Source: a virus
Lineage: Duplodnaviria; Heunggongvirae; Uroviricota; Caudoviricetes
Strand: one strand, 5' to 3'
DNA length: 7,904 nucleotides
Virus record (IMG/VR): IMGVR_UViG_2660238352_000010
Coordinates: 1 to 7,904 of that record
In this document: piece by piece, positions 1-7,904 of the stretch
How the letters are laid out: each line of letters starts with the position of its first letter
Numbering within the stretch: position 1 is the first letter of the stretch
Notes under the pieces: model-generated
What the model saw: the letters and a program-made list of their open reading frames with translations, nothing else
Databases searched by the model: none
Told to the model about the DNA's origin: nothing
Position numbers and translations under genes: made by a program

Positions 1-89
1 TAGCTGGATTGAATACCCTTCAAAAGAGGTCCGCGACGCTGCTAATCAAAAGATGATGTCGGACCCACGGATGAAAGAGCTACTGGCCG

Positions 90-455
90 GTGTCGCAGTG
101 GGCGTCAGGCGCGGCAGCAAACAGTATGCTGGCATCATTCTTCCTTCAGACGGATGCATCAAATCTGAATCTTATGCACCACAAGGGCACGTCGAATGCA
201 CAACTTGGTACATTTGGTGCGTTTGACCATAACTGGCATACGGTTGTTTTCCGCTTTGCGGGAAATAACAGCGAAAGAGTCGTTCCGGTGATTGATGGTA
301 CAGAGCAGACGGCGTTTGACCTTGTGATGTGGACAAATGATGGCTTTACAGCAGATACGCTGACGCTGACAGATATCACGGGGGCAAAAGCGACGTATCC
401 TGTACTGCTTGATACGGTCACAGTCAAAGTTAACGAAAGCCGGGCATCATCATAA
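90..455 (+). CDS. Hypothetical protein, probably the 3' portion of a larger or frameshifted gene; function not recognised
   Basis: Frame 3 is open from 75 to the TAA at 453-455 and reads as a protein-like, beta-rich sequence (…FDHNWHTVVFRFAGNNSERVVPVIDGTEQTAFDLVMW…). The start is uncertain: GTG at 90 or ATG at 126, neither with a good SD. Frame 2 is open from the window edge to 238 and is also protein-like, so a frameshifted or left-truncated gene is possible. Confidence 0.35.
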   Translation: MSQWASGAAANSMLASFFLQTDASNLNLMHHKGTSNAQLGTFGAFDHNWHTVVFRFAGNNSERVVPVIDGTEQTAFDLVMWTNDGFTADTLTLTDITGAKATYPVLLDTVTVKVNESRASS

Positions 456-460
456 CCGGC

Positions 461-497
461 AAAAAAAGCCGCCAGCGGCAGGAACGGAAGCTGGCGG
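461..497 (-). terminator. Rho-independent terminator, minus-strand orientation
   Basis: An 8 bp GC-rich stem (ccgccagc 469-476 pairing with gctggcgg 490-497) with a 13 nt loop. On the + strand it is preceded by A7 (461-467), so on the minus strand the hairpin is followed by CUUUUUUU. There is no U-tract on the + side. Confidence 0.5.
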
Positions 498-547
498 AGG
501 TAATCCCAATGGAGAATGTAAAGAAAAGATGCTTTCGTATATCGGTT

Positions 548-576
548 TTTTAAATGAAAACAGTTCTCATTGTCAA
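548..576 (-). promoter_or_regulatory. Candidate sigma70 promoter on the minus strand
   Basis: Minus strand reads TTGACA (perfect -35, + coordinates 576-571), then a 17-18 nt spacer, then TTAAAA/TAAAAA (weak -10). It sits about 80 nt upstream of the minus-strand terminator at 461-497. Confidence 0.25.
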
Positions 577-594
577 CCATAACGGTAAGAAACT

Positions 595-789
595 ATGACA
601 TTTATTCATCAGGTGATGCTGTACTTCTGTACGGCGGTCTGTGTGCTGTATCTTCTTTCGGGTGGGTACAGGGCAGTGCGCGATTTCTGGCGCAGGCAGA
701 TTGATAAAAGGGCCGCAGAGAAAATCAGCGCCAGTCAGTCAGCCGGAGCAAAAACAGAAGCCCCACTCATTCCGGAACAACCTTCTTAA
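595..789 (+). CDS. Hypothetical small membrane protein (64 aa)
   Basis: ATG at 595 to TAA at 787-789. The N-terminus is hydrophobic (VMLYFCTAVCVLYLLSGGY), consistent with one TM helix, followed by a basic, charged tail. The SD is weak (aagaaa). No homolog recognised. Confidence 0.3.
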   Translation: MTFIHQVMLYFCTAVCVLYLLSGGYRAVRDFWRRQIDKRAAEKISASQSAGAKTEAPLIPEQPS

Positions 790-814
790 TAACCCCTTTC
801 AACGAGAAAATCCT

Positions 815-1105
815 ATGTCAGAAATAAAATCGCTGGTCACTGCTGAGGCAGTGAAGGAAGTCCTGCGCTCTGAAGAAGTCCGGAGCGCACTGAAACAGCA
901 ACTTCGGCAGAACCTTGAGGCGCGTCTTGATGCAGAAGTGGATTCAATTCTGGATGAATTGCTTGGTGCACAGCCGGAACCATCCCCGGAACTGCTTCCG
1001 GAACCACAGGCGGAAGATGTCACCACGGAAAATGGTGATATTCAGCCGGAGCCACCGGTGACGGATATGACAGACACACAGCCAGAATCGGGCACAATGC
1101 TGTAA
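815..1105 (+). CDS. Hypothetical acidic protein (96 aa) with a helical N-terminus and a Pro/Glu-rich, probably disordered C-terminus
   Basis: ATG at 815 is the first ATG after the in-frame TAA TAA at 787-792; the ORF-track start at 641 is an overlap artefact. The sequence is MSEIKSLVTAEAVKEVLRSEEVRSALKQQLRQNLEARLDAEVDSILDELLG…PEPSPELLPEPQAED… It ends at TAA 1103-1105, directly followed by a terminator hairpin. No homolog recognised. Confidence 0.45.
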   Translation: MSEIKSLVTAEAVKEVLRSEEVRSALKQQLRQNLEARLDAEVDSILDELLGAQPEPSPELLPEPQAEDVTTENGDIQPEPPVTDMTDTQPESGTML

Positions 1106-1115
1106 CGGTGAGTCA

Positions 1116-1153
1116 GGGTCATCAGTAAAGAGCTGGTGGCCCTTTTGTTGTTG
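1116..1153 (+). terminator. Rho-independent terminator, + strand
   Basis: A 10 bp stem (gggtcatcag 1116-1125 pairing with ctggtggccc 1133-1142, including two G-U pairs) with a 7 nt loop, followed by TTTTGTTGTTG (1143-1153). It lies between the 815..1105 ORF and the holin SD (GGGAGA at 1169-1174). Confidence 0.5.
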
Positions 1154-1180
1154 TGAGCTTCCGAGTACGGGAGACGGGGT

Positions 1181-1396
1181 ATGTACCAGATGGAAAAAAT
1201 CACAACAGGTGTGTCATACACCACGTCAGCGGTGGGAACGGGCTACTGGTTCCTGCAGTTGCTGGACAGGGTTTCCCCGTCTCAGTGGGCGGCAATAGGC
1301 GTGCTGGGGAGTCTGTTGTTTGGGCTGCTGACATATCTGACTAACCTGTATTTCAAAATCAGAGAGGACCGTCGTAAGGCGGCGCGGGGAGAGTAA
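1181..1396 (+). CDS. S: Class II holin of the phage 21 S / EssQ pinholin family (71 aa)
   Basis: The product [71 protein letters not shown] is near-identical over the C-terminal two-thirds to the P21 S21 / E. coli EssQ holin as I recall it (…[14 protein letters not shown]…[22 protein letters not shown]). It has a dual-start motif (Met1 and Met4), an SD GGGAGA 6 nt upstream, and two predicted TM helices. Confidence 0.9.
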
Positions 1397-1400
1397 AGCG

Positions 1401-1745
1401 ATGAAGAAAAAATACGAACTGGTTGTTAAAGGGATAAATAATTACCCGAATAAGATTACTGTTACTGTGGCACTGGAAATTGGTGGGTATCCGTCACTGT
1501 TGTTGCCAGATGTGGCGATTAGTCTTGACCGTACTGAAGATGCCACGCTGGAGTTTTACGAAGCTGAGGCGAAAAAGCAGGCGAAGCAGTTTTTCATGGA
1601 TGTTGCTGCCGGGTTATGTGAAGGGGATGGTCCGTTGCCGGAAAAGCGCCCCGTAATTTTAGAGGCGCAGGATGTGTTGATAACCTACAGAGGAAAACTA
1701 CCGGGAATAATTACTGGTTCTCTGAAGACTCCACCGCTGGCCTGA
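1401..1745 (+). CDS. YdfR-like DUF1327 family protein (114 aa), the usual gene between holin and endolysin in Qin-type lysis cassettes
   Basis: ATG at 1401 with SD GGGGAGAG (1386-1393), translationally coupled to the holin stop at 1394-1396. The N-terminus MKKKYELVVKGINNYP resembles the YdfR family as I recall it. Its position between S and R matches the essQ-ydfR-rrrQ arrangement. Confidence 0.7.
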   Translation: MKKKYELVVKGINNYPNKITVTVALEIGGYPSLLLPDVAISLDRTEDATLEFYEAEAKKQAKQFFMDVAAGLCEGDGPLPEKRPVILEAQDVLITYRGKLPGIITGSLKTPPLA

Positions 1746-1795
1746 AGACTTAACATATCCAGGGATTTGAAATCGATAAACCCTGATAAATATCC

Positions 1796-2833
1796 ATGAA
1801 CACCAAAATCAAATACGGCCTGTCGGCTGCCGTTCTGGCGCTGATTGCCGCAGGTGCGCCTGCGCCTGAAATCCTCGACCAGTTTCTGGATGAAAAGGAA
1901 GGTAACCACACCACGGCATACCGTGATGGCGCGGGTATCTGGACCATCTGCCGCGGTGCCATCCTGGTGGATAGTAAACCTGTCGTTCCGGGCATGAAGT
2001 TGTCGAAGGAAAAATGCGACCAGGTTAACGCCATTGAGCGTGATAAAGCGCTGGCGTGGGTGGAGAAAAACATCAGAGTGCCGCTGACCGAACCCCAGAA
2101 AGCGGGGATCGCGTCATTCTGTCCGTACAACATTGGTCCCGGTAAGTGTTTCCCGTCGACGTTTTACAGACGAATTAATGCTGGTGATCGCAGGGGAGCA
2201 TGCGAGGCGATTCGCTGGTGGATTAAGGACGGTGAGCGGTATTTTTTCTGTAATGAGCTGAATGAAAAAGGGGAGCCGGTCACCTGGCAGGGGCGGCAAT
2301 ATCAGGCGTACCCGATTGAGGGGAGTGGCTTTGAGATGAACGGAAAGGGCAGCAGTGCCCGCCCGTCGCTGACGGTGTCCAATCTTTTCGGCCTTGTCAC
2401 CGGAATGGCGGAGGATTTGCAGAGCCTGGTGGGGGCCACGGTGGTCCGCCGCCGGGTGTATGCCCGTTTTCTGGATGCGGTGAATTTCGTTGCGGGCAAT
2501 CCGGAAGCGGACCCGGAGCAGGAGCTGAGTGACCGCTGGGTGGTGGAGCAGATGTCGCAGCTGACAGCCATGACGGCCTCGTTTGTGCTGGCCACACCGA
2601 CCGAGACGGACGGGGCGCTGTTTCCCGGTCGTATCATGCTGGCGAACACCTGTATGTGGACCTACCGCTCTGATGAGTGTGGTTACACGGGCGGGGCTGT
2701 GGCGGATGAGTTCGATAAACCCACCACGGATATCCGTAAGGACAGATGCAGCAAGTGCATGCGCGGGTGTGAACTGCGCAGGAATGTCGGCAATTTTGGC
2801 GGTTTCCTTTCCATTAATAAACTTTCGCAGTAA
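1796..2833 (+). CDS. Chimeric ORF: SAR endolysin (T4-lysozyme-like, GH24) residues 1-146 fused in frame to the C-terminal 199 residues of minor tail protein L
   Basis: Residues 1-146 (MNTKIKYGLSAAVLALIAAGAPAPEILDQFLDEKEGNHTTAYRDGAGIWT…GACEAIRWWIKDG) match RrrQ/R21-type endolysins, with a Gly/Ala-rich SAR domain and an E35-x8-D44-x5-T50 catalytic triad. Residues 147-345 (ERYFFCNELNEKGEPVTWQGRQYQAYPIEGSGFEMNGKG…CSKCMRGCELRRNVGNFGGFLSINKLSQ) match lambda gpL from about residue 34 to its C-terminus, including the C-terminal Cys cluster. The junction is at about 2231-2236. Confidence 0.85.
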   Translation: MNTKIKYGLSAAVLALIAAGAPAPEILDQFLDEKEGNHTTAYRDGAGIWTICRGAILVDSKPVVPGMKLSKEKCDQVNAIERDKALAWVEKNIRVPLTEPQKAGIASFCPYNIGPGKCFPSTFYRRINAGDRRGACEAIRWWIKDGERYFFCNELNEKGEPVTWQGRQYQAYPIEGSGFEMNGKGSSARPSLTVSNLFGLVTGMAEDLQSLVGATVVRRRVYARFLDAVNFVAGNPEADPEQELSDRWVVEQMSQLTAMTASFVLATPTETDGALFPGRIMLANTCMWTYRSDECGYTGGAVADEFDKPTTDIRKDRCSKCMRGCELRRNVGNFGGFLSINKLSQ

Positions 2834-2838
2834 ATCCC

Positions 2839-3582
2839 ATGACAGAGACAGAATCAGCGATTCTGGCGCATGCCCGGCGGTGTGCGCCTGCGGAGTCGTG
2901 CGGCTTCGTGATAAGCACGCCGGAGGGGGAGCGGTATATCCCTTGTGTGAATATTTCCGCAGAGCCGGAGGCGTATTTTCGTATCGCACCGGAAGACTGG
3001 CTGCGGGCAGAGATGCAGGGGGAGATTGTGGCACTGGTCCACAGTCATCCCGGTGGACTGCCCTGGCTGAGCGAGGCCGACCGGCGGCTGCAGATAAAAA
3101 GCGCACTGCCCTGGTGGCTGGTCAGCCGGGGTGACATTCACAAATTCCGCTGCGTTCCGCACCTGACGGGACGGCGCTTTGCGCACGGGGTGACGGACTG
3201 TTACACGCTGTTCCGGGATGCATACCATCTGGCAGGCATTGATATGCCGGATTTTCATCGCGGGGATGACTGGTGGTGCAACGGTCAGAACCTTTACCTG
3301 GACAATATGGAGGCAACGGGCTTTTACCGGGTGCCCCTGTCCTCTGCACTGCCGGGCGATATCCTGCTGTGCTGCTTCGGCGCATCGGTGGCTAATCATG
3401 CCGCCATTTACTGCGGCAACGGTGAGCTGCTTCACCATCTGCCTGAACAGCTGAGTAAACGGGAGAGGTATTCCGAAAAATGGCAACGACGAACGCATTC
3501 TGTCTGGCGTCACCGCCACTGGCACGCATCTGCCTTCACGGGGATTTACAACGATTTGGCCGCCGCCTCAGCCTGTATGTGA
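2839..3582 (+). CDS. K: Tail tip assembly protein K (MPN/JAMM plus NlpC/P60 domains), 247 aa
   Basis: The product is close to lambda gpK (MTETESAILAHARRCAPAESCGFV…). It has a complete JAMM motif H68-x-H70-x7-S78-x2-D81 (VHSHPGGLPWLSEAD) and an NlpC/P60-type Cys121 (VTDCYTLF) with downstream His residues. The start is 5 nt after the L stop. It overlaps I by 103 bp. Confidence 0.9.
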   Translation: MTETESAILAHARRCAPAESCGFVISTPEGERYIPCVNISAEPEAYFRIAPEDWLRAEMQGEIVALVHSHPGGLPWLSEADRRLQIKSALPWWLVSRGDIHKFRCVPHLTGRRFAHGVTDCYTLFRDAYHLAGIDMPDFHRGDDWWCNGQNLYLDNMEATGFYRVPLSSALPGDILLCCFGASVANHAAIYCGNGELLHHLPEQLSKRERYSEKWQRRTHSVWRHRHWHASAFTGIYNDLAAASACM

Positions 3583-4160
3583 ACACGGCAGCGGAAGCCA
3601 TCCGCGCACTGTCGATGCAGGTGCCGGGCTTTCGCCGTCAGATGAACGAAGGCTGGTACCAGATACGCATTGCCGGTGAGGATACGGCACCGGAGGCGGT
3701 GTATGCCCGCCTTCACGAACCACTGAGTGAGGGAACGGTTATCCATATTGTGCCGCGACTGGCCGGGGCCGGAAAGGGTGGACTGCAGATTGTGCTGGGG
3801 GCGGCAGCCATCGTGGGCTCTTTCCTCACGGCCGGTGCCTCGATGGCGTTATGGGGTACAGCCCTGAGTGCCGGCGGTTTTTCTGCCACCACGATGCTGT
3901 TTTCACTGGGGGCCAGCATGATTCTGGGTGGTGTGGCCCAGATGCTGGCCCCGAAGGCAAAAACACCGGATTACCGCGCAACGGATAACGGCAGACAGAA
4001 CACGTATTTTTCGTCACTGGACAACATGATTGCCCAGGGTAACCCGATGCCGGTGCCTTACGGGGAAATGCTGGTTGGCTCCCGCCGTATATCCCAGGAC
4101 ATCAGTACCCGTGATGAAGGCGGGTGCGGAAAGGTCGTGGTTATCGGGCGGCAGGGGTAA
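3480..4160 (+). CDS. I: Tail tip assembly protein I (ubiquitin-like N-terminal domain, hydrophobic Gly/Ala-rich C-terminal half)
   Basis: The product MATTNAFCLASPPLARICLHGDLQRFGRRL…MLAPKAKTPDYRATDNGRQNTYFSSLDNMIAQGN…VVVIGR aligns along its length with lambda gpI as I recall it. A GG sits at residues 100-101 after the Ubl region. The stop is TAA at 4158-4160. Confidence 0.9.
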   Translation: MATTNAFCLASPPLARICLHGDLQRFGRRLSLYVNTAAEAIRALSMQVPGFRRQMNEGWYQIRIAGEDTAPEAVYARLHEPLSEGTVIHIVPRLAGAGKGGLQIVLGAAAIVGSFLTAGASMALWGTALSAGGFSATTMLFSLGASMILGGVAQMLAPKAKTPDYRATDNGRQNTYFSSLDNMIAQGNPMPVPYGEMLVGSRRISQDISTRDEGGCGKVVVIGRQG

Positions 4161-4167
4161 AAAGAAT

Positions 4168-4201
4168 AAAAAAAATCCCGCAGTGATCGCGGAGCTGCGG
4201 G
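4168..4201 (-). terminator. Rho-independent terminator, minus-strand orientation
   Basis: A 7 bp stem (cccgcag 4177-4183 pairing with ctgcggg 4195-4201) with an 11 nt loop. On the + strand it is preceded by A8 (4168-4175), so the minus-strand RNA ends …CUGCGGGAUUUUUUUU. There is no U-tract on the + side. Confidence 0.6.
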
Positions 4202-4262
4202 GACAGACAAAGATTAGAGTTAAGGAGTTGTTTTTGTTACTCGGGCAAAAAAACACTAACGC
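4168..4262 (-). ncRNA. Candidate prophage-encoded small RNA (~95 nt), minus strand, between tail genes I and J
   Basis: The unit is bounded by a near-consensus sigma70 promoter (TTCACA, 16 bp spacer, TATAAT) with a predicted TSS near 4262, and by the intrinsic terminator at 4168-4201. No plausible ORF is contained. The predicted RNA is 5'-GCUGCGUUAGUGUUUUUUUGCCCGAGUAACAAAAACAACUCCUUAACUCUAAUCUUUGUCUGUCCCCGCAGCUCCGCGAUCACUGCGGGAUUUUUUUU-3', with a CA-rich tract and an anti-SD-like CUCCUU. Confidence 0.45.
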
Positions 4263-4268
4263 AGCGAA

Positions 4269-4296
4269 ATTATACGCGCCACAGTCAGTTTGTGAA
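4269..4296 (-). promoter_or_regulatory. Sigma70 promoter on the minus strand (-35 TTCACA, 16 bp spacer, -10 TATAAT), with an A/T-rich upstream region
   Basis: On the + strand, ATTATA at 4269-4274 is the reverse complement of a perfect TATAAT, and TGTGAA at 4291-4296 is the reverse complement of TTCACA (5/6 to TTGACA). The minus-strand sequence upstream of the -35 (…ggcataaaaattctgaatatc) is A/T-rich and UP-element-like. Confidence 0.55.
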
Positions 4297-4368
4297 AATG
4301 TGAAGATATTCAGAATTTTTATGCCATTACCGGTTTTTACCAACAGGATTATCGGTGGACATGAAAGA

Positions 4369-4404
4369 AAACCCCGGTATCTGCTGATACCGGGGTTTCT
4401 CTTT
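4369..4404. terminator. Bidirectional intrinsic terminator: perfect 13 bp stem, 4 nt loop, U-rich tracts on both strands
   Basis: aaaccccggtatc (4369-4381), loop tgct, gataccggggttt (4386-4398). The + strand is followed by TTCTCTTT; the minus strand is followed by UCUUUCAU after the stem. It lies about 100 nt upstream of the J start and about 70 nt upstream (minus sense) of the minus-strand promoter. Confidence 0.6.
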
Positions 4405-4501
4405 AGCATGGCAGAAATGTGTTTCATGCTTTTCGGGCGAAGGATATCCGACTTCTGTACGGAATGGCAAGTGGCGGTTAATTTATTCAGGGGAAGGCTG
4501 T

Positions 4502-7500
4502 ATGGGAAAAGGTGGCGGTAAGGCACACACGCCTCGTGAGGCGAAGGATAATCTCAAATCCACGCAGATGATGAGCGTGATTGATGCGGTTGGTGAGGGA
4601 CCGATAGAAGGCCCGGTGAAGGGACTGCAGAGTATCCTGGTGAACAAAACCCCGCTGACGGACACGGACGGTAATCCCGTGATACACGGTGTGACGGCGG
4701 TCTGGCGCGCCGGGGAGCAGGAGCAGACACCACCGGAAGGCTTTGAGTCCTCCGGAGCTGAAACTGTACTGGGCGTGGAAGTGACGAAGGCAAAACCGGT
4801 GACGCGCACCATTACGTCCGCGAACATTGACCGCCTGCGGGTTACCTTCGGGGTGCAGTCACTGGTGCAGACCACGTCAAAGGGTGACCGAAACCCGACA
4901 TCCGTCCGCCTGCTGATTCAGTTACAGCGTAACGGTAACTGGGTGACAGAAAAGGATGTCACCATTAACGGCAAGACCACCTCGCAGTTTCTGGCGTCGG
5001 TGATTCTGGATAATCTGCCTCCCCGTCCTTTTAACATCCGGATGGTCCGGGAGACGGCGGACAGCACCACGGACCAGTTGCAGAACAGAACACTCTGGTC
5101 ATCGTACACCGAAATCATCGATGTGAAACAGTGCTACCCGAACACGGCGATTGTGGGGCTGCAGGTGGATGCGGAGCAGTTCGGTGGTCAGCAGATGACG
5201 GTGAACTACCATATCCGCGGTCGCATCATCCAGGTGCCGTCAAACTATGACCCGGAAAAACGCACCTACAGCGGTATCTGGGACGGCAGTCTGAAACCGG
5301 CATACAGCAACAACCCGGCCTGGTGCCTGTGGGACATGCTGACTCACCCGCGCTACGGGATGGGAAAACGTCTGGGGGCGGCGGATGTGGACAAGTGGGC
5401 GCTGTATGCCATCGGGCAGTACTGCGACCAGACGGTCCCGGATGGTTTCGGGGGCACAGAGCCGCGGATGACCTTTAATGCGTACCTGGCACAACAGCGT
5501 AAGGCGTGGGACGTTCTCAGTGATTTCTGCTCGGCGATGCGCTGTATGCCGGTATGGAACGGCCAGACGCTGACGTTCGTTCAGGACCGCCAGTCGGATG
5601 TGGTGTGGCCGTACACGAACAGCGATGTGGTGGTGGATGATAACGGCGTGGGGTTCCGCTACAGCTTCAGTGCCCTGAAGGACCGGCACACGGCGGTGGA
5701 GGTGAATTACACCGACCCGCAGAACGGCTGGCAGACCTCCACGGAACTGGTGGAAGACCCGGAAGCCATACTGCGCTACGGACGCAACCTGCTGAAGATG
5801 GATGCGTTCGGCTGCACCAGTCGCGGTCAGGCCCACCGTGCCGGGCTGTGGGTGATAAAGACAGAACTGCTGGAAACGCAGACGGTGGATTTCACACTCG
5901 GGTCACAGGGGCTGCGGCACACACCCGGTGACATCATTGAAATCTGTGATAACGACTATGCCGGAACCCTGACCGGCGGACGTGTCCTGTCCATTGATGC
6001 TGCCACCCGCACCCTGACGCTGGACCGTGAAGTGACACTTCCGGGGACAGGTACATCGACGGTGAACCTGATTAACGGCAGCGGTAAGCCGGTGAGTGTG
6101 GACATCACCGCACACCCCGCGCCGGACCGGATACAGGTCAGTACCCTGCCTGATGGTGTGGAGACATACGGGGTGTGGGGACTCTCCCTGCCGTCACTGC
6201 GCCGTCGCCTGTTCCGCTGTGTCTCCATCCGGGAAAACACGGACGGCACCTTTGCCATCACGGCAGTGCAGCACGTACCGGAAAAAGAAGCCATTGTGGA
6301 TAACGGAGCCCGCTTTGAGCCGCAGTCAGGCACCCTGAACAGCGTTATCCCACCGGCAGTGCAGCACCTGACGGTGGAGGTGAGCGCAGCTGACGGCCAG
6401 TATCTGGCGCTGGCGAAATGGGACACGCCGCGGGTGGTGAAGGGCGTGCGCTTCAGTCTGCGCCTGACCAGTGGAAGCGGTGAGAACAGCCGCCTGCTGA
6501 CCACCGCCATCACTGCCGATACGGAGCACCGTTTCAGTGGCCTGCCTCTCGGGGAATACACCCTGACGGTCAGGGCGATTAACAGCTATGGCCAGCAGGG
6601 CGAACCCGCCACCACCACGTTCCGGATTAACGCACCGGCAGCGCCTGCCGGTGTTGAACTGACGCCGGGGTATTTTCAGATAACGGCGGTACCGCGTCTT
6701 GCGGTGTATGACCCGACGGTGCAGTTTGAGTTCTGGTTTTCGGAGGCAAAAATTGCAGACGCCGCACAGGTGGAAACCTCTGCCCGTTATCTGGGGACCG
6801 GCAGTCAGTGGAGTGTCTCCGGCCCGCACATTAAGCCCGGAAAGGATTTCTGGTTTTATGTGCGCAGCGTCAACCTGGTGGGTAAATCTGCTTTTGTGGA
6901 AGCCAGTGGACGGGCGAGCAATGATGCTGCGGGCTATCTGGAACTTTTCCGGGAAAAGATAGGAAAAACGCATCTGGCAGAGGCGCTGTGGGCAGAGATT
7001 GACAACAGTCAGCTGAAGGACGAGATGGCGGAAATGCAGACCACCATCACAGAAACCCGCAATGAAATCACACAGACGGTCAGTAAAACGCTGGAGGACC
7101 AGAGCGCCACCATACAGCAGATACAGCGCGTGCAGAAGGACACAAATGATGACCTTGCTGCACTTTACATGCTGAAGGTACAGAAAACAAAAAATGGCAT
7201 ACCCTATGTTGCCGGTATTGGAGCGGGGATTGAGGATACTGATGGCCAGCCCCTGAGCAACATACTGCTGCTGGCTGACCGTATTGCGATGATTAATCCG
7301 GAGGACGGCAACACCACGCCGTTATTTGTGGCGCAGGGGAATCAGTTGTTCATGAACGATGTGTTCCTGAAGCGGCTGTTTGCGGTGAGTATCACCTCGT
7401 CCGGCAATCCCCCGACGTTTTCCCTGACGCCGGAGGGCAGGCTGACCGCAAGAAATGCTGATATCAGCGGTAACGTGAATGCGAATTCCGGGACGCTCAA

Positions 7501-7904
7501 CAACGTCACGATTAACGAGAACTGTCGGGTTCTGGGAAAACTGTCCGCGAACCAGATTGAAGGCGATCTCGTTAAAACAGTGGGCAAAGCTTTCCCCCGG
7601 GACTCCCGTGCACCGGAGCGGTGGCCATCAGGGACCATTACCGTCAGGGTTTATGACGATCAGCCGTTTGACCGGCAGATTGTTATTCCGGCGGTGGCAT
7701 TCAGTGGCGCTAAGCATAAGAGAGAGCATACTGATATTTACTCCTCATGCCGTCTGATAGTGCGGAAAAACGGTGCTGAAATTTATAACCGTACCGCGCT
7801 GGATAATACGCTGATTTACAGTGGCGTTATTGATATGCCTGCCGGTCACGGTCACATGACACTGGAGTTTTCGGTGTCAGCATGGCTGGTAAATAACTGG
7901 TATC
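4502..7904 (+). CDS. J: Host specificity / central tail fibre protein J, 3' end truncated by the window edge
   Basis: ATG at 4502 with SD GGGGAAGG upstream. The frame is open to the window end (1134 codons). The N-terminus [39 protein letters not shown]… and long stretches (…[31 protein letters not shown]…, …[34 protein letters not shown]…, …[11 protein letters not shown]…) match lambda gpJ as I recall it. It is absent from the ORF track only because no stop lies inside the window. Confidence 0.95.

Follow-up and report, generated by a model that had tools for sequence, protein, structure and literature searches.

DUF1378 and DUF826, a catalogued two-gene accessory cassette ahead of the holin gene, in a defective lambdoid prophage

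The DNA analysed here (the window) comprises 7,904 nucleotides, positions 1 to 7,904 of IMG/VR record IMGVR_UViG_2660238352_000010, and is assigned to a virus of the Caudoviricetes. Its subject is a pair of adjacent genes near the left end, encoding products of 64 and 96 amino acids (aa). An earlier reading made from the letters alone (the sequence-only reading) had delimited these two open reading frames (ORFs) at 595–789 and 815–1105 and had described them as unrecognised cargo that matches no nameable family. Both ORFs are present at those positions, but both products belong to named families. Together, DUF1378 and DUF826 make up a two-gene accessory cassette that has been catalogued from Stx-type lambdoid prophages, and its genes, families, and position are already in databases. 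The locus is laid out as follows.

595–789, plus strand: DUF1378 family gene, ATG start, 64 aa; predicted single-pass inner-membrane protein with its N-terminus out and its C-terminus in.
815–1105, plus strand: DUF826 family gene, ATG start, 96 aa; product predicted to be cytoplasmic, acidic, and helical, its disordered Pro/Glu tail terminating in ...GTML.
1115–1153, plus strand: intrinsic terminator ahead of the holin gene, consisting of a hairpin and a T-tract.
1158–1396, plus strand: holin leader hairpin (1158–1173, overlapping the Shine-Dalgarno sequence) and P21-type class II holin gene (1181–1396; PF04971), given as context.
2–79, plus strand: truncated ybaA (DUF1428), a host core gene of which the 3' part remains; it marks where the prophage remnant ends on the left.
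81–455, plus strand: 3' remnant (~125 codons) of a NanS-p-type SASA sialate O-acetylesterase gene, with the DUF6645 C-terminal domain.
461–576, minus strand: candidate antisense small RNA (sRNA) gene of PasA/PasC-like position and architecture, with a promoter-like site and a terminator-like site.

Family membership was assigned when the score against a profile hidden Markov model exceeded the curated Pfam gathering threshold, which is 25 bits for both families. The 64-aa product is a member of DUF1378 (PF07125; 119.1 bits against the cut-off of 25, E 9e-35) and matches the profile over its full length, residues 1–59 falling on profile positions 1–59 of 59; it also matches PHROG 494 (phrog_494). 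The 96-aa product is a member of DUF826 (PF05696; 98.8 bits against 25, E 2e-28), with residues 1–57 on profile positions 1–59 of 75, and matches PHROG 311 (phrog_311) over its full length (E 5e-37). In RefSeq the genes go under the names 'DUF1378 family protein' and 'DUF826 domain-containing protein', and proteins identical to the 96-aa product are on record there (WP_001824734.1). At 75–98% identity to named E. coli and Shigella DUF1378 proteins, the 64-aa product is a plain family member that shows no difference from them. Its counterparts, ECs_1210 of Sakai, H0119 of VT2-Sakai, and 'Orf25' of 933W, occupy the same site between nanS-p and S, and the counterparts of the 96-aa product are ECs_1211 of Sakai, H0120 of VT2-Sakai, and L0106 of 933W. 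The DUF826 allele in the window is among those with longer acidic tails (96 aa versus 81–90 aa in other E. coli alleles, the TL-2011c/VT2-Sakai type having 90 aa). DUF826 is a small family, with 59 profile matches among 1.84 billion representative proteins; apart from Escherichia and Shigella sequences, they comprise diverged homologues without a name and a subgroup that traces to Pantoea genomes.

Of 5,426 complete E. coli genomes searched by megablast with positions 456–1180, 1,006 contain the region, at a median of 2 copies and a maximum of 7. It is also present in 306 phage records, most of them from Stx1- or Stx2-converting phages, and phages carrying the pair include 933W, VT2-Sakai, TL-2011c, and the PhiR phages, whose records give E. 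coli C or K-12 as host. In Sakai the copies ECs_1210 (DUF1378) and ECs_1211 (DUF826) lie in prophage Sp5. A contig search with the DUF1378 protein returned no match. The PhiR phage records (e.g., L003 6360–6650, PhiR5_1 and relatives) name the DUF826 gene 'head completion protein', a label that is probably an automated mis-annotation and that the profile and structure results do not support.

To assess conservation, we assembled 112 loci, drawn from IMG/VR and annotated records, whose two ORFs could both be delimited, and not one of these loci has a broken frame for either gene. The median pairwise ratio of nonsynonymous to synonymous substitution (dN/dS, Nei-Gojobori) is 0.21 among 45 distinct DUF1378 sequences and 0.25 among 49 distinct DUF826 sequences; it is 0.16 in the membrane and basic part of DUF1378 and 0.23 in the helical domain of DUF826. 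Frame retention and these ratios show, at the level of sequence comparison, that both ORFs are genuine protein-coding genes under purifying selection, as had been proposed. The sequence-only reading had named two ways in which it could fail, namely that the ORFs are fragments of a larger gene or that their frames are not kept among relatives; we observed neither.

The start of the DUF826 gene required closer attention. The mechanical ORF list has the frame open from GTG 641, giving a 154-aa ORF (641–1105), and database calls differ among 96 aa, 134 aa (TTG 701; PGAP, in many genomes), and 148 aa (933W L0106; L084 3180–3626). We assign the start to ATG 815 because the longer upstream frame is not kept in diverged lineages: in one the extension is only 27–35 codons long and stands in another frame relation to DUF1378, and in another it is 5 codons. 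The annotated L0106 of 933W thus differs from the 96-aa form in bearing a non-conserved 5' extension. A few database proteins do fuse DUF1378 and DUF826, through the loss of one A from GATAAAAGG (window 703–711) or through other indels, and PHROG 8301 is a fused DUF1378–DUF826 family.

The locus could alternatively be read as a single larger gene, either as the 148–154-aa L0106-type frame or through a +1 frameshift at GAT-AAA-AGG (window 703–711), and we give this reading almost no credence. It can draw on the DUF826 frame being open ~66 codons upstream in most Stx-like loci, on the 134-aa form often called by PGAP, and on the rare fused proteins joining exactly at the A-run of 703–711. However, ATG 815 and the DUF826 domain are kept where the extension has shrunk to 27–35 or 5 codons, one close relative has a stop inside the extension, and the slip site is missing from L082 and altered in L036. 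A programmed +1 frameshift or N-terminally extended DUF826 (154-aa frame, AAA-AGG slip site, fused proteins P0032 and P0068) was considered separately and rejected, since neither the frame relation nor the extension is kept in diverged lineages and the fusions are single-base indels.

The AlphaFold 2 model of DUF1378, built with family alignments, consists of one helix (residues 2–50) followed by a disordered tail. The hydrophobic span covers approximately residues 4–24 and has an invariant SGGY at its end; all eight K/R residues (8/8) lie C-terminal to it, and residues 25–64 have an isoelectric point (pI) of 10. The hydrophobic N-terminal helix and basic C-terminal part are as the sequence-only reading described them. 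Given this placement of K/R residues, the positive-inside rule would put the short N-terminus in the periplasm and leave the basic helix and tail on the cytoplasmic side, and DUF1378 is accordingly modelled here as a predicted single-pass inner-membrane protein with its N-terminus out and its C-terminus in.

For DUF826 (pI 4.05), the AlphaFold 2 model has a short helix (10–17) and a long helix (20–50), both with a predicted local distance difference test (pLDDT) value above 90, while residues 53–96 fall below 50 and are predicted to be disordered. This C-terminal segment holds 11 acidic and no basic residues along with 9 Pro, matching the acidic, Pro-rich composition noted earlier. The tail varies in length and sequence among alleles and is always rich in Pro, Glu, and Asp. 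Long-tailed alleles end in a hydrophobic tip (...GTML, ...VMML, ...DMMM, ...STMM), here the last four codons at window 1091–1102, which looks like a short docking or degradation motif.

Neither protein resembles anything of defined function in the collections searched: PDB sequence searches with DUF1378 and DUF826 gave no match, a BFVD fold search with the DUF826 model returned nothing below E = 2, no family in the PADLOC defence library matches either protein, and no holin or antiholin family of Pfam or PHROGs matches either product. The suggestion that the acidic protein is a DNA mimic or anti-defence factor finds no support in this evidence, as its acidic part is predicted to be disordered rather than a folded charged surface and no PDB, BFVD, or PADLOC match was found.

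Distant DUF826 homologs occur in Pantoea (L091–L093, e.g., L093 3950–4177) without any DUF1378 gene. They sit downstream of an Rz-like gene and other small ORFs and bear a conserved Trp-rich N-terminal extension (MWIKDWLF...), which might replace the membrane anchor.

The genomic neighbourhood of the pair is highly regular on one side. A synteny comparison across prophages, suggested as a check in the sequence-only reading, has the pair travelling as a unit in 112/112 loci, always in the order NanS-p-type esterase gene, DUF1378, DUF826, diverged lineages included; wherever the locus is of the Escherichia type, the two proteins co-occur. The esterase remnant in the window matches Pfam DUF6645 (E 1e-26) and aligns with the end of a 1,983-bp 'SASA family carbohydrate esterase' gene in DETEC-S792 and of a 1,989-bp homologue in PhiR5_1. 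On the other side, a P21-type holin and a signal-arrest-release (SAR) lysozyme come next after the pair in Stx-like lineages and in the diverged lineage L127/L128. In the window, too, the next gene (1181–1396) is a P21-type class II holin (PF04971, E 9e-33), so that the pair does lie directly upstream of the holin as was first proposed, and a DUF1327/YdfR gene and a lysozyme gene follow.

The holin has two in-frame starts, Met1 and Met4, and a 68-aa form starting at Met4 is annotated in E2348/69. A hairpin, CTTCCG/CGGGAG (within 1158–1192), overlaps the holin Shine-Dalgarno sequence; its z-score of −0.35 is not significant alone. By analogy, the hairpin and the two starts resemble the dual-start control known for lambdoid S genes.

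This position invites the reading that DUF1378 and DUF826 form an antiholin-like regulator of lysis timing that modulates triggering of the adjacent pinholin. Besides adjoining a P21-type holin and SAR lysozyme in both Stx-like lineages and L127/L128, the pair includes a small single-pass membrane protein of holin-like size and, by position, would be co-transcribed with S under Q. T4 RI/RIII, P1 LydB, and P2 LysA/LysB likewise place a small membrane protein and a small cytoplasmic helical protein beside a holin, although they have no sequence or profile similarity to the pair. Several observations nonetheless make a lysis regulator quite unlikely. A holin protein identical to that of the window (WP_000284510.1) occurs with the pair in DETEC-S792, whereas in DA33133 it lies 150 bp after the esterase gene with no trace of the pair. 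The holin allele is found at 8,940 places in E. coli genomes versus 2,340 for the pair region, so about three quarters of holin copies are without the pair. Because the identical holin also occurs without it, the pair is an optional cassette and not a component the holin needs, which upholds its earlier description as cargo.

Loci that have lost the lysis genes point the same way. In 33 IMG/VR loci (L094–L126, e.g., L095 1671–7458) the lysis and head genes are deleted and the pair is intact, a remnant type that is widespread; the order is esterase gene, DUF1378, DUF826, a small ORF, a Com-like ORF, a Mom-like ORF, and homologues of lambda tail U and V, the Com-like and Mom-like assignments being our own reading of the sequence by eye. 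In this remnant lineage dN/dS is 0.24 for DUF1378 and 0.14 for DUF826, so the pair stays under purifying selection there. A terminator also separates it from S, and neither product matches a holin or antiholin family. The pair therefore differs from the known two-component lysis regulators in being dispensable for an identical holin, separated from it by a terminator, and kept without lysis genes.

The copy in the window belongs to a defective prophage. Segment 2–79 is 100% identical to ybaA in 5,417 of 5,426 E. coli genomes and matches positions 68–93 of 102 of the Pfam DUF1428 profile. Esterase homology begins only at about nucleotide 81, where ybaA is directly joined to the last ~125 esterase codons. 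The junction (about nucleotide 80) creates a chimeric ORF that ends at 226, and it is found in no complete RefSeq E. coli genome. Further along, a 345-aa ORF at 1796–2833 joins the N-terminal ~147 residues of a SAR-type lysozyme in frame with minor tail protein L (Pfam Phage_lysozyme at 33–147, Phage_tail_L at 146–343). The prophage is defective because deletion has removed Rz, terminase, the head genes, and most tail genes. No Q or pR' lies immediately upstream of the pair in the window, and transcription of ybaA would run towards the pair.

A consensus scan of positions 1–2200, a range that takes in the stretch from the esterase gene to the pair, found no sigma-70-like promoter on the plus strand; promoters that are weak or not of the sigma-70 type could escape such a scan. 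The GC content of the pair (0.51–0.53) is not distinct from that of the flanking genes (0.50–0.55). Expression of nanS-p, the gene directly upstream of the pair, goes up by 1–2.4 logs when mitomycin C is used for induction (PMC10462455), in line with late transcription under Q. The hairpin that separates nanS-p from the pair lacks a plus-strand T-tract. From the lack of a detected promoter, the undistinct GC, the induction of nanS-p, and the missing T-tract, we infer that an intact phage transcribes the pair within its late message.

A terminator-like hairpin at 1115–1143 is followed by TTTTGTTGTTG up to 1153. Its predicted fold has a free energy of −19.3 kcal/mol (z = −4.1), and none of 200 shuffled sequences was as stable. 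The pairing register is conserved, with 96% of cells paired versus 18–69% when the partner is slid. The nine variants show one-sided changes only and no two-sided compensatory change, so covariation lends the hairpin no statistical support. Some hairpin follows DUF826 in every lineage, diverged lineages having unrelated hairpins at the same place. DA33133, which has no pair, carries this same hairpin together with the S leader ahead of its holin, and E2348/69 PP2 has a different terminator there. Because it is also present in a pair-less prophage, the hairpin is best called a pre-holin terminator that forms part of the holin leader. The sequence-only reading had credited the pair with its own terminator: the terminator itself is borne out, its being private to the pair is not.

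These transcriptional features bear directly on that reading's proposal of a moron expressed in the lysogen, acting through superinfection exclusion at the membrane or through an anti-defence or DNA-mimic activity of the acidic protein. The polymorphic presence of the pair between the same neighbours, its retention at low dN/dS in degraded prophages including the ybaA-fused remnant, the terminator downstream, and a known cargo position in the late region would all suit a moron. The lambdoid morons lambda bor and lom and HK97 gp15 are likewise optional late-region insertions with a downstream intrinsic terminator that are kept in defective prophages. Unlike them, the pair has no detected promoter of its own, an undistinct base composition, and a terminator that it shares with pair-less prophages. 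The locus gives an autonomous moron no support, with no promoter-like site found on the plus strand and no deviation in composition. The acidic segment is moreover predicted to be disordered, unlike folded DNA mimics, and no similarity to a solved structure, BFVD model, or PADLOC family was detected. We regard a lysogen-expressed moron as unlikely.

The 139-bp spacer from the esterase stop codon to DUF1378 contains a promoter-plus-terminator unit on the minus strand. The promoter has a perfect −35 TTGACA (576–571), a 17-nt spacer, and a −10 TTAAAA (553–548); the predicted RNA starts near 541 and is ~80 nt long. Its terminator combines a GC stem (497–490/476–469) with a T7 run (467–461) whose end lies 6 nt from the esterase stop codon. 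The unit runs antisense to the esterase gene. Its promoter-like pattern, which was derived post hoc, has a single occurrence in the window, where 0.08 would be expected. Promoter, body of 80–110 nt, GC hairpin, and T-run recur in 99 of 110 loci, which yield 38 distinct RNAs with bodies that differ by lineage.

Among known RNAs, the element most resembles PasA and PasC of enteropathogenic E. coli (EPEC) E2348/69 and EcOnc51/52 of Sakai, which are Hfq-dependent prophage sRNAs (PMC8550237 Table S6; PMC4104026 Table S2; bioRxiv 10.64898/2026.05.13.724894). These occupy the same interval after the esterase stop codon, are antisense, and share the TTGACA-N17-TNARAA layout, the ~80 nt RNA, and a GCCAGC-type stem with a T7–8 run; PasC and EcOnc52 have the same layout, lying between an esterase gene and a holin. 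A blastn comparison at word size 7 gave only chance matches of 8–14 nt between the spacer element and PasA/PasC, and the element has no Rfam match. Bona fide PasA differs in sitting in spacers without the pair. For the spacer in Sakai Sp5, Tree et al. (PMC4104026 Table S2) list no Hfq peak. To judge from its layout, the spacer element is a candidate that may be an undescribed relative of the PasA/PasC-type sRNAs.

The antisense unit raises the idea of a type I toxin–antitoxin-like system, comparable to tisB/istR-1 and zorO/orzO, in which DUF1378 would be a membrane toxin and the spacer sRNA would block translation of the read-through mRNA. The minus-strand unit starts ~54 nt upstream of the DUF1378 start codon in a conserved layout, its RNA is fully complementary to any plus-strand transcript entering the pair, and DUF1378 is a protein of ~60 aa with one hydrophobic helix. 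We nevertheless find this very improbable, since sRNAs of matching position and architecture (PasA, PasC, EcOnc51/52) occur in prophages without a DUF1378 gene, no Hfq-bound RNA is listed at the spacer in Sakai Sp5, and DUF1378, with its long hydrophilic tail and its partner gene, both conserved, differs from the known type I toxins.

A second sRNA locus lies elsewhere in the window. The minus strand carries a homolog of the EPEC prophage sRNA PasB at 4169–4247, in the interval from tail gene I to tail gene J; it has ~90% identity over ~80 nt, terminator and T8 run included, and the published PasB Northern probe sequence matches exactly. The only Rfam match in the whole window, a sub-threshold hit to Hrs1 at 4168–4239, turned out to be the opposite strand of this PasB homolog and was discarded.

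Taken as a whole, the locus is best explained by a non-essential accessory function tied to the esterase/late-release module rather than by core lysis or a DNA mimic. We hold this to be on balance probable, and such a function of the late region ranks first among the readings considered. Polymerase modified by Q reads through terminators at which other polymerase stops. In the intact phage, the pair would be transcribed from pR' in the Q-antiterminated late message along with stx and nanS-p, and Q-modified polymerase would pass the terminator into S. Polymerase that is not antiterminated would halt at the terminator, so that the pair would be made from read-through and the lethal pinholin would not. 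In the remnant of the window, expression of the pair would come from read-through of the truncated ybaA, with the terminator shielding the still-intact pinholin gene.

We hypothesize that DUF1378 sits in the inner membrane, exposing its basic helix and tail to the cytoplasm, and that the acidic helical domain of DUF826 docks on this basic helix. Docking would tether the flexible acidic tail of DUF826 at the inner face of the membrane, where its conserved hydrophobic tip might bind some partner. Charge complementarity (pI 10 versus pI 4), co-occurrence, and rare fusions suggest, with moderate to low confidence, an association of the two proteins at the cytoplasmic face of the membrane; the natural fusion ORFs and PHROG 8301 show that fusion can occur. 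A more specific version, in which the two form a membrane-anchored device for exclusion of superinfecting phage DNA, control of the pinholin trigger, or control of NanS-p release, with read-through synthesis gated by the upstream PasA/PasC-like antisense sRNA, we consider decidedly improbable.

Several points weigh against an esterase-linked accessory function and the protein contact proposed with it. The sole literature mention of the pair calls its products proteins of unknown function (PMC10462455), and searches under the locus tags ECs1210, ECs1211, Z1467, and L0106 turned up no paper of relevance. That the pair is transcribed with the late operon is argued from its position, and a weak promoter could have escaped the consensus scan. 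The linkage to the esterase could merely reflect the shared ancestry of a small phage lineage. As for the DUF1378–DUF826 contact, the fusions behind it have the appearance of indels or sequencing errors, each gene's alleles recombine independently of the other's, and the Pantoea homologs of DUF826 occur without a DUF1378 gene.

The anatomy of the locus shows nothing that points to a new kind of system. What this analysis adds to the catalogued families is the start at ATG 815, the optional nature of the cassette, the placement of the terminator in the holin leader, and a conserved sRNA-like gene in the spacer. The major Stx phages (933W, VT2-Sakai) carry the pair, as do about a fifth of complete E. 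coli genomes, often in multiple copies. As it lies between the toxin and esterase cargo and the lysis genes that release it, its role could bear on toxin and esterase release or on prophage maintenance.

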